In this document: positions 6,619 to 9,079 of the stretch, piece after piece
Numbering within the stretch: position 1 is the first letter of the stretch
Layout: every line of letters starts with the position of its first letter
Assembly (NCBI GenBank): GCA_030167865.1
Contig: JALAGF010001218.1
Location: 1 to 39,567 of the forward strand
Direction of reading: 5' to 3'
Length of the DNA stretch: 39,567 nucleotides
Source of the DNA: Craspedostauros australis
Taxonomy: Eukaryota
Notes under the pieces: generated by a model
The model's database searches: none
What the model saw: the letters and a program-made list of their open reading frames with translations, nothing else
Told to the model about the DNA's origin: nothing
Made by a program: the position numbers and the translations under genes

Positions 6619-9079
6619 CTACTCCAACAGTGAGGAGAATGGATTTCCCTTCAAGACGACTCCTGCATTCCTCAACGCGTCGGCTGCGGCCTTGGCGCGC
6701 TCGGTCTGTTTTGCAAGTTCCACATGCCTTCGATCCCAGAGTCTGCTGTTCACGTCTCTGCTCGTCTCCTGCAGCGCCCGTTCCTTCTCTCGCTGCGCCC
6801 ACTCCATGTGGCTGCGCTTCTCCTTCGCCCGTAGCGCAAGCGACTTCCTCTTTCGCTTCTTGCAGTCCTTGATGTACTCCTGGACGTCGCGCCATGATTC
6901 GCTCTTCAGCTCGAAGCTCTCGTGCGCCTTGCTCTGCGCTTCGGCCTTCTCAAGGCGTTCCTCGAGCTTCTCCAGGGCGAACTTCTTGCCACGGTACTGC
7001 AATGATCTGCGATCCCGTTCCTCGCATGACTTCTTGTATTGTTTGACGTCGTGGTGATCTGCGTAAGTACGCCAAATGGTATTCGTAGTGTGGTACGTAT
7101 CATTGCATCATTTGACATGATTTGACATCGTTAGGTACGGTCGAGCACAATGTACACCAGAATATGGTATGTAGAGTACAGGGTCAAGATTGGCAGCGGA
7201 TTGTGAACAAGGAGGTCAATGGTTAGTCAAGGCAAAGGCAGAGATCGGGCATGTGCCATACTCGTAAATACTTGTGTATGACACATCGATGTCGATGAGG
7301 GGTGTGACAGCACTGCGACGACCGTTGCCAATGAGTCGGATGCCACTTACCCTGTGATTTCAGCTGTCCATCCTTGACGACCGCGTTCACCTCGATGCTG
7401 TGCTGATCCTCGTCGTACTGTTTCTGTCGCACGAACTCCCTGCCACGCTGCTGCAACGACTGCCGTCGTTCTTCCGCCTTCTTGGCAAGGTAGTCCTTGG
7501 CGTCATTCTCCGCCGCCCATTTTAACATGTACGACTCGGTCTCCTTCTCACTTGCGATCTGTCGGAGCTCCCTCATCACCTTGTCATGGCGCGCGCTCTC
7601 CTGGTTCCGGTTGGCCAAGCTTTGGCGACGCTCTTCTCGGAGCTTGGCCTGGTACGCCTCGGCATCCTTCTCACCTGCCCATTTCAGCTCGTAGCTGTTG
7701 TGTTCGTCGGCCATCTGATTCGCTCTGCGGGCTCCTTCTTCCTGGCGAATCTGCCTCGCCCTCGCGTTTCTACATTCCAGGCTCTGACGGCGCTCTTCGG
7801 CTGTCATCTTCTTGTAGTTGTCAACGTCGCGATCTGCTTGGCGAGTGAGCTCGTAGCTCTCGGCAGTTTGCCGTGCAACGTCATTGGTCCACGTTGAGCG
7901 CAGGGCACGGATGCGCTTGGCATCACCCGCACGGAACTGGTAGCTCTTGCGACGTGCCTCAGCCTGCTTCGCGGAGTACTCGCGACCGGCGTCGCTGAGA
8001 GTGTGACGCAGCTCGAAAATCGTGTTGTCCTCGTTCAGTTTTTGCATCTTCATGCGCTCCTTGCCCACTTTGTTGTTGGCTCGGATGTTGGCACGCTTGG
8101 CGGTTGACTGGCGGCGGCGCTCGTCTCTCTCTTGCTTCAGCTTCTGCTGCTGTTCGCGATGAACCTGGGAGTTGAAGAGGTACTCCTTCTCGATCTTGGC
8201 CAGCTCGCGGCTGCGCTGTGCATGTTGTTGCCGCGCTCTTTCTCGAAAATGCTTCGATGACAGCTCGTTCTTGAGGCGCAGGATCTCGCGTCGCTTCTTC
8301 TCGGTTTCTTCGTTGAAGTGCTTCGCCTCCAAAATGTCCTCCTCCCACTGGAAGCGCACCTTCTTGGTCTCAAGCTGGTTGGAGTTGATGGTGACCTTCT
8401 TCGCGTTCTTCGCACCCTTGAGGGTCTGGTTGACGCTTGTGCTTGCCTTGCGAATGGCGTCCTGCGTCCTCTTCACCATGTCACGGCGCATGGGAGACTT
8501 CGAGCGCATGCGGTTCAATTTCTGCCTCGTCTCCGACGACATGGCCACCGATCTGGACCTGGACGAGGAGGACTTGTGAGAAGAGTTGGTGGATGGAGGT
8601 GTCGGATTGGTGGTATTCTTCATGGATCGAGCTTTGCTGATTTGGCTGGTCTGGCTTGTTCGGCTCAGGACGCTCTTGATGCTGAGATCATTGGAGCCCG
8701 GTGCCGAGTTGGGAGTGTTCTCCTTGTCGTCACAGGGGGTTGCACCGAATTCCGCTGGCAGCGCTTTGATGGGTGGAGTGGCGGATTCCGCCAGCTGTGA
8801 GAAAAGAACTGTTGGAGATGGTTGGTTGATTTGCGAGTTGACGGATCCATCCAACGATCCCCGAATGGGTGAAAGAGTGATCCCTGCGATTTCATTGGGA
8901 TGCTTTGGATTGATTTCCTTGGTCATGGGCGATGGCGAATAGCAGAGGCTTCCGTCGACATCGTCCGAGAACATGTCACCGAAGACCTTGGAGGCCTTTG
9001 CGCGCCTCTTTTCCGTCGAGGGAGGAACCCCGCTGGAGGGCTGCGCTTCCGAGAGTGACATTGACAAGGAGGTTGACAT
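6619..9079 (-). CDS. Charged alpha-helical protein with seven 54-aa tandem repeats, 2 exons; function unknown
   Basis: Probable ATG at 9079 (MSTSLS). Exon 1 is 9079-7351 (G|GTAAGT) and exon 2 is 7058-6619 (CGCAG|AT). Splicing keeps both the frame and the 54-aa repeat register. S/P-rich N-terminus, E/R/K/Q-rich C-terminus. Confidence 0.85.

Follow-up and report, generated by a model that had tools for sequence, protein, structure and literature searches.

A 54-residue repeat in strict register in a predicted helical protein family of diatoms, with a possible role on mitotic microtubules

A gene on a contig of Craspedostauros australis (NCBI GenBank assembly GCA_030167865.1, contig JALAGF010001218.1, positions 1 to 39,567 of the forward strand; this whole stretch of 39,567 nucleotides is referred to as the window) encodes a protein in which a unit of 54 residues recurs in strict register along what is predicted to be a very long alpha-helix. 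The gene lies on the minus strand, as do all of its features given below, and consists of two exons with a product of 722 amino acids (aa). Coding exon 1 (7351..9079) opens with an ATG at 9079, lies within an open reading frame (ORF) at 7223..9259 and specifies residues 1-576 together with the first base of codon 577, while coding exon 2 (6619..7058, within ORF 6619..7107) specifies residues 577-722 (coding 7058..6622) and ends in a stop codon at 6619-6621. Between them lies a phase 1 GT..AG intron (7059..7350), with the donor G/GTAAGT at 7351/7350 and a 3' end CAG, which falls inside the sixth repeat unit. Both the start and the stop of this gene model match those of homologous proteins, whose alignment shows conservation of KASKVFG...SLCYSPSP in the N-terminal part and of GNPFxxLL at the C-terminus, and two transcriptome-derived homologues (P0057 and P0068) continue through the splice junction (7351/7058) and are equal in length to the window protein. 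Many of the genomic predictions for pennate homologues stop at ...LQSECK, which corresponds to the intron site in the window, and this suggests that the position of the intron is conserved and that these public gene calls are truncated. Support for the splicing of the intron comes entirely from homologues; a sequencing run (X1), whose kind is uncertain, yielded one contig of 202 bases, covering 6609-6810.

The composition of the protein changes along its length: residues 1-227 contain 62 Ser and Thr residues and 20 Pro residues, as opposed to no Pro at all in residues 228-713. The N-terminal region (residues 1-194; 8498..9079) is probably disordered and regulatory, judging from its Ser/Thr/Pro-rich composition and from the counterpart region of the orthologue P0057 (predicted local distance difference test, pLDDT, <50). 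It carries the motifs KASKVFG, SLCYSPSP and PSPTVLF, which are conserved in the homologue alignment, and a basic KRRAKASK stretch, as well as a KEN box at residues 119-121 (8717..8725; context CDDKENTPN), which is assigned from the position of the motif and from its counts in homologues. The helical part opens with SPMR (residues 195-198; 8486..8497), a full site of the cyclin-dependent kinase (CDK) type that the alignment consensus places inside a conserved SPxRRDLVxKTQ, and continues with the RVxF-like KKVRF (residues 239-243; 8351..8365), which is aligned inside a conserved KxVRFQW. The first five units, together with the opening part of unit 6 (residues 298-576, 54 residues apiece; 7351..8188), are delimited by motif spacing, self-similarity and the helices of an AlphaFold2 model, and the remainder of unit 6 together with unit 7 (residues 577-675; 6763..7058) by motif spacing and by a counterpart in P0057 that is predicted to be helical. 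The latter segment includes KKRKRKS, a basic cluster that, from its sequence, is possibly a nuclear localisation signal (NLS). At the C-terminus, GNPFSSLLE (residues 714-722; 6622..6648) represents the GNPFxxLL tail conserved in the alignment. An NPF tripeptide stands within the final 25 residues of 53 of the 148 family proteins; NPF is known as a ligand of EH domains. The protein as a whole has a pI of 9.9, and its helical part a net charge of +32.

The repeat is marked by a basic motif around a serine, which begins at residues 322 (RRQST), 376 (RRKSY), 430, 484 and 538 (RRQSL in all three), 592 (DRRSL) and 646 (KRKSL). The step is always 54 residues, the intron included, so that the gene model and its translation bear out the seven evenly spaced, indel-free motifs of the original prediction, an earlier reading of the bare sequence whose range (6700-8120) runs from the first through the last of them; the complete seven-unit array occupies residues 298-675 (8188..7351 + 7058..6763). 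The same prediction had the repeat units free of Pro, as they are, and had an ES[YF]ELK element in most of them; an element of this type is present in four of the seven units (ESYELT, NSYELK, ESYMLK and ESFELK in units 3, 4, 5 and 7). Wherever it could be checked, that description of the sequence proved correct. When residues 241-722 are compared with themselves using BLOSUM62, the highest self-similarity falls at an offset of 54 (0.558), followed by 162 and then by 108, against a maximum of 0.113 over 500 shuffles. Units inside the window protein have a mean identity of ~23% (maximum 43%), and each of them shares 33-72% identity with the unit in the corresponding position of three other diatom proteins, which in every case is also its best match. 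A search for a DNA-level tandem repeat in the gene found none. The low identity between units, combined with the lack of a tandem repeat in the DNA, argues that the spacing is held by selection and is not the trace of a recent duplication.

A word-seeded HMMER search retrieved 125 relatives, the named ones coming from Fistulifera solaris, Cyclotella atomus, Cylindrotheca fusiformis, C. closterium, Bacillariaceae sp. and a Thalassiosira transcriptome. The sole non-diatom organism name among them belongs to a transcriptome record labelled Tiarin[a], presumably a ciliate. Functional labels on the diatom relatives all read 'hypothetical', apart from a UniRef name on one Cyclotella homologue that refers to the trichohyalin-plectin-homology (TPH) domain. 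With a family profile, a search of 1.84 billion representatives reached 416 clusters at E <= 0.001, 126 of them at E <= 1e-30. Both exons of the window protein were scanned against Pfam at E <= 1 with no above-threshold domain (exon 2, of 145 aa, gave just two sub-threshold, unrelated matches), and the number of PDB chains matching the family profile at E <= 1 is 0; neither search assigns the protein to a known non-cytoskeletal family, an assignment that would have told against the original prediction. Only 3 relatives are longer than usual (1039-1240 aa), none of them with a Pfam domain. Precomputed Pfam labels on four homologues (P0007, P0009, P0020 and P0115; VbhA, PH_FT_C and Mto2_bdg) were rejected, since no single stretch passes; they look like artefacts of weak matches summed over the repeats. 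Literature searches on diatom spindle proteins, KEN boxes, 54-aa repeats and the core motif brought up nothing on the family; supplementary tables of transcriptome papers on the diatom cell cycle might already list orthologues as mitotic. On the sequence evidence, the family is real, new and, among its named members, almost wholly diatom; it appears to be undescribed.

The period is a constant of the family. Among 120 homologues the best self-similarity period is 54 in 110 and 108 in the other 10, which leaves no orthologue of variable repeat length in this set, and 741 of the 761 spacings between [RK][RK]xS[LFYMIV] motifs in these proteins are multiples of 54, with 20 that are not. So that the motif would not serve as its own reference, the register was also followed in steps of exactly 54 from a single conserved anchor in each protein, which could be located in 148 of 276 proteins. 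Ser occupies 1144 of the 1183 positions reached in this manner, at a background Ser frequency of 5.7%; [RK][RK]xS is present at 1030 of them, and at 1081 the next residue (+1) is one of L, F, I, V and Y. Where the residue is not Ser (n=39), it is Asp in 22 cases, Glu in 2 and Thr in 1. If the serine is a phosphorylation site, the acidic substitutions would follow the pattern expected where a negative charge replaces phosphoserine. By a rough count, the number of units varies across the family from ~3 to 12 per protein. A distant subfamily of proteins of ~600 aa, found among the weaker matches of the profile search (E 1e-24 to 1e-36 against the family profile), retains the 54-residue period; cluster entries gave neither names nor taxa for it. 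Its members (P0214, P0225, P0226, P0231, P0232, P0233, P0234 and P0244) have a different unit consensus, W/D...YK...RRxS[LIM]..R..W; P0225 has a KEN near its N-terminus, and some of the other members have only EN-containing stretches there. An ESM Atlas search with P0214 gave a top score of 0.87, under the 0.9 level at which a match is taken as a lead, and no usable taxa.

Structure predictions were obtained with AlphaFold2 for residues 228-576 of the window protein (a 349-aa fragment, with an alignment of 55 rows) and for the full-length orthologue P0057. The fragment is modelled as two helices, 4-203 and 224-348 (protein residues 231-430 and 451-575), with a mean pLDDT of 84.2 and a predicted template modelling score (pTM) of 0.30, and P0057 as a disordered stretch at 1-114 and a near-continuous helix at 166-655 with brief breaks at 328-334 and 438 (mean pLDDT 66.7, pTM 0.23). 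Hairpins, bundles and solenoids are found in neither model, so that the continuous helix foreseen by the original prediction, in preference to a compact bundle or solenoid, is upheld at the level of modelling. Across the family, the fraction of Pro is 0.0002 over 930 units. The spectrum of apolar residues, averaged over 127 family proteins, has no heptad or hendecad periodicity (power of 0.11 at 3.50, shuffled 0.21, and of 0.13 at 3.67, shuffled 0.23), and its peaks are harmonics of 54; a canonical coiled coil is made less likely by this spectrum. Amphipathic repeats of the lipid-binding 11-mer kind were likewise rejected, since 11 does not divide 54 and the spectrum is without power at 3.67.

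Within the unit, ~20 of the 54 positions are strongly conserved, aromatics and the RRxS motif included; the conserved residues are H1 S3 Y4 L6 K7 W8 G10 D13 Y17 L21 R25 R26 S28 L/F29 F31 R32 N33 R40. On a helix these positions span about two thirds of the circumference (~240 degrees), leaving one variable sector, and the apolar positions form two stripes. Positions 18-40 have a mean charge of +4.6 in the family. An alpha-helix has 3.6 residues per turn and a rise of 1.5 Å per residue, and 54 residues make 15.0 turns and 8.1 nm; the original prediction had this textbook arithmetic right. With a whole 15 turns to each unit, every unit would present the same face, and would do so at the spacing of the tubulin dimer. 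Searches by structure contribute little. Foldseek against the PDB gave 0 matches, and a wide VIA-align search gave a best Z of 10.7, all hits being long helices, mostly with a root-mean-square deviation (rmsd) >100 Å and below the stated noise level for long helices of ~Z 13. The top ranks are long helices of doublet-microtubule structures, lamin, rootletin and myosin rods also lie near, again below noise, and a complex of tubulin with a stathmin-like domain appears at Z 7.9, within noise. As candidate homologues these look-alikes were rejected as uninformative.

The N-terminal region provides a separate line of evidence. A KEN is present there in 90 of the 123 homologues with a recognisable N-terminus, where shuffled sequences give 4.6 on average and 12 at most, and it occurs outside the N-terminal region in only 9 of the same 123; in the AlphaFold2 model of P0057 the region that bears it is disordered. 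Such a conserved KEN box would be independent support for cell-cycle control, which the original prediction had suggested from its phosphorylation motifs, the KEN box itself having escaped it. The many SP/TP sites that it had noted are there: the first 230 aa contain 9 [ST]P, two of which are full [ST]Px[KR] (SPIR at 70 and SPMR at 195), and the SPxR at the helix start is conserved among homologues. Basophilic kinases such as PKA and Aurora recognise [RK][RK]xS followed by a hydrophobic residue. The near-invariant [RK][RK]xS of the unit, with its hydrophobic neighbour, fits this consensus, so that the assignment of RRxS to the PKA/Aurora type remains a sound one as far as motif matching goes. 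A strict RVxF-like pattern of the type KxVRFQW occurs in 24 of the 123 homologues. A second RVxF-like motif, KxVSF, is seen just before the KEN in many pennate homologues and is absent from the window protein; by their resemblance to the RVxF docking pattern, KxVRFQW and KxVSF are putative docking sites for phosphatase-1. Inspection by eye led to the rejection of the N-terminal motifs as D-box, ABBA, 14-3-3 or Polo-box sites, whose consensus patterns are not matched by the conserved residues.

The genes elsewhere in the window are ordinary nuclear genes such as a photosynthetic eukaryote would have, and none is evidently connected with the repeat gene. Frames bearing recognisable domains are, in order, DTW (818-1930), Pumilio with 6 repeats (12020-15349), SAM (18825-19733), EPL1-like (25485-27575), SET (28209-29360) and monogalactosyldiacylglycerol (MGDG) synthase (36483-38639), the last of which fits a photosynthetic host. 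A Ser-rich frame of 581 aa (4544-6289, plus strand), with no Pfam match, is convergent with the repeat gene, towards whose 3' end it runs, and may be another lineage-specific gene. A 10-base direct repeat, GTTTGAATTG, is present in 2.4 copies at 6500-6523, ~100 bases past the stop codon of the repeat gene.

Our favoured interpretation, which we would put somewhat short of an even chance, is that of a mitotic protein binding the microtubule lattice under phospho-control. It would consist of a disordered N-terminal control region, in which short conserved motifs accompany SP/TP sites and a KEN degron, and of a Pro-free, basic alpha-helix of ~490 residues with 54-residue units in strict register, each of which would have a basic core and display the conserved face H-S-Y-L-K-W-G-D-Y ... 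RRxS[LF]-R-N. The protein would be made for mitosis and destroyed through the anaphase-promoting complex/cyclosome (APC/C). The rigid helix would follow a partner that repeats every 8 nm, most probably a microtubule protofilament, at one unit per tubulin dimer, and a basophilic mitotic kinase would phosphorylate the RRxS serine of each unit, weakening the binding step by step. The strict register implies that nowhere in the rigid helix is an indel of even one residue tolerated, as would be expected if a periodic partner had to meet an identical side of each unit at constant axial intervals. The argument for microtubules as that partner consists of the arithmetic (54 x 1.5 Å = 8.1 nm) and of analogy with stathmin, MAP7 and INCENP. 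The analysis shows a conserved repeat, a predicted helix and a conserved KEN box; turnover in the cell cycle, phosphorylation by such a kinase and, above all, the microtubule partner are inferred.

These analogies deserve a closer look. One phosphorylation site of stathmin is an RRKS within the helix, and the stathmin domain is internally duplicated, with one copy per dimer. According to PMC11238091, the stathmin-like domain is a single long helix lying beside two head-to-tail tubulin dimers, to which it binds less well once conserved serines are phosphorylated; here the corresponding helix is predicted and the binding proposed. The difference is that stathmin has two copies and sequesters curved tubulin, while the window protein has seven units (~3-12 in the family), an exact period of 54 and a tail bearing a KEN. 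No Stathmin match was found in the Pfam scan of the window protein at E <= 1. The microtubule-binding domain of MAP7 is reported (PMC10908866) to be a helix (residues 63-151) that runs for ~13 nm along a protofilament and touches successive tubulin subunits; it resembles the window protein, whose helix is a prediction, in being a basic single helix, and differs in having no tandem array and in giving no sequence match in the Pfam scan of the window protein. The single alpha-helix domain of INCENP, which binds microtubules directly, is a long, charged, monomeric helix in a mitotic protein (PMC4571873), and the window protein, if mitotic, would be alike in this respect. The helix of INCENP differs in its lack of a strict repeat and of a conserved aromatic face, and an IN-box was not found by Pfam in exon 2 of the window protein. 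TPH proteins and other long-helix inner proteins of the axoneme share long E/R/K-rich helices that follow protofilaments, and stand at the top of the structural ranking, at noise level; a TPH match in Pfam was found neither in the window protein nor in the Cyclotella atomus homologue P0048 (E <= 0.1), in spite of the UniRef name of the latter. By the sequence tests that were run, the window protein does not belong to the stathmin, MAP7, INCENP or TPH families, and it may work like them.

A further parallel is with filament rulers. Nebulin has units of ~35 residues per 5.5 nm of actin, and the repeats of tau, of ~31 residues, bind in an extended and not in a helical form. What nebulin and tropomyosin on actin, and tau, MAP2 and MAP4 on microtubules, would share with the window family is a tandem arrangement of units that match the subunit spacing of a filament. 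Unit length is fixed in the window family, at 54, which amounts to 8.1 nm only if the units are fully helical, as the models suggest; the number of units is not fixed, which makes the fixed-length spindle ruler entertained by the original prediction unlikely. A 'nebulin for microtubules', that is to say a continuous helix in which each 54-residue unit contacts one tubulin dimer on a protofilament of the diatom spindle, with the number of units setting the strength of binding, RRxS phosphorylation switching it off and the KEN box leading to removal, is put forward tentatively and would have to be called rather unlikely in this full form. No protein with helical units matched to the 8-nm tubulin dimer is known to us. 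A literature search on tandem repeats in microtubule inner proteins likewise brought up none with a helical repeat of 8 nm, and a Plasmodium paper on SPM1 makes no mention of repeats.

Several observations weigh against a lattice-binding helix. Any continuous helix of 54 residues measures 8.1 nm, so the match to tubulin may be a coincidence. Thr replaces the register Ser once in 1183 positions, and this near-absence of Thr could mean that the Ser is structural and not a kinase site. The two AlphaFold2 models have low pTM (0.30 and 0.23) and place their helix breaks differently, and single-chain AlphaFold2 often renders coiled-coil or self-associating proteins as lone long helices. Taken at 100 degrees per residue, the moment of conservation exceeds that of shuffles only modestly (p = 0.04), and conservation over some two thirds of the circumference would equally fit packing in a bundle. 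Finally, the consensus unit is near neutral (+1.0), with acidic flanks (-1.9 and -1.8) that fit poorly with the acidic surface of a microtubule.

Some of these same observations can be accommodated by a rod or filament that associates with itself, in which alternating charge blocks drive a staggered or antiparallel packing, so as to form a scaffold (in a spindle matrix, at the spindle pole or in the nucleus) with an 8-nm period of its own. The per-unit charge pattern (-1.9 / +4.6 / -1.8), the wide spread of conserved residues and the two apolar stripes are all compatible with such a rod, whose partners a single-chain prediction is unable to show, and lamin, rootletin and myosin rods figure among the structural look-alikes, though below noise. 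Nevertheless, the family has no heptad or hendecad periodicity, its apolar residues are sparse, and an in-register homo-oligomer should allow indels of whole turns or heptads, yet the spacings that depart from multiples of 54 are just the 20 of 761. We consider this explanation unlikely, though worth keeping in view.

A helix could also serve simply as a spacer or tether between the N-terminal motifs and the GNPFxxLL tail, with no lattice partner, in which case the unit would record an ancient duplication followed by selection against helix breakers. An E/R/K-rich, Pro-free composition, the prediction of long monomeric helices and the presence of short conserved motifs at both ends of the protein would suit this well, and the single alpha-helix of INCENP is described as such a tether (PMC4571873). 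A spacer, however, has no need of a conserved face, yet about 20 of 54 positions are strongly conserved, with aromatics and RRxS among them; changes of length within the unit should be tolerated, and none are seen; and with ~3-12 units per protein no fixed distance would be kept. These points make a plain tether quite unlikely.

The notion that the basic units hold DNA, RNA or the chromosome surface in mitosis, to be released on phosphorylation of RRxS, draws on the high pI and the Arg-rich unit cores, on NLS-like clusters (KRRAKASK, KKRKRK) and on a KEN box and SP sites such as many nuclear cell-cycle proteins have. It is decidedly improbable, given that the Pfam scan of the window protein contains no nucleic-acid-binding domain, that a repeat of 8.1 nm fits no simple spacing of DNA or nucleosomes, and that the conserved Y, W, G, Y and F and the acidic flanks are atypical of non-specific binders. 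Pennate diatoms have no flagellated stage. A microtubule inner protein of the axoneme, akin to the long-helix proteins inside ciliary doublets and proposed in the original prediction, is hardly credible, for although the best-ranked structural look-alikes are doublet-microtubule helices (Z up to 10.7) and UniRef gives a Cyclotella homologue the TPH name, those matches have rmsd >100 Å and lie below the noise of ~Z 13, the TPH domain of Pfam is absent from both the window protein and P0048, the family occurs in pennates (Fistulifera, Cylindrotheca, Bacillariaceae), and a KEN degron, which implies access of the cytoplasmic or nuclear APC/C, is unexpected in a protein sealed in the lumen.

For the biology of diatoms, the interest of a lattice-binding, mitotic protein lies in the paracrystalline central spindle, a classic system for the study of anaphase B and of ordered overlap between microtubules. 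Older papers on the diatom spindle reportedly describe its structures and one kinesin, and to our knowledge few of its non-motor components are known at the level of sequence. The indel-free register over >1000 unit junctions at ~23% identity, the match to the phase of the helix, the RRxS motif and the KEN box together point to a helix that would read a lattice under mitotic control, and the repeat family is in any case a concrete and easily tested spindle candidate. If the 'nebulin for microtubules' reading is correct, no helical microtubule-associated protein before this one would have had the period of the tubulin lattice encoded in that of its sequence, and the protein would provide a molecular handle on the central spindle of diatoms. 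Should the family bind microtubules, it would demonstrate that the lattice period of tubulin can be written into a sequence in helical form, and its many serines would constitute a multi-site phospho-rheostat for lattice affinity; should it not, the strict register would still demand another periodic partner or an 8-nm self-assembly, which would itself be new.

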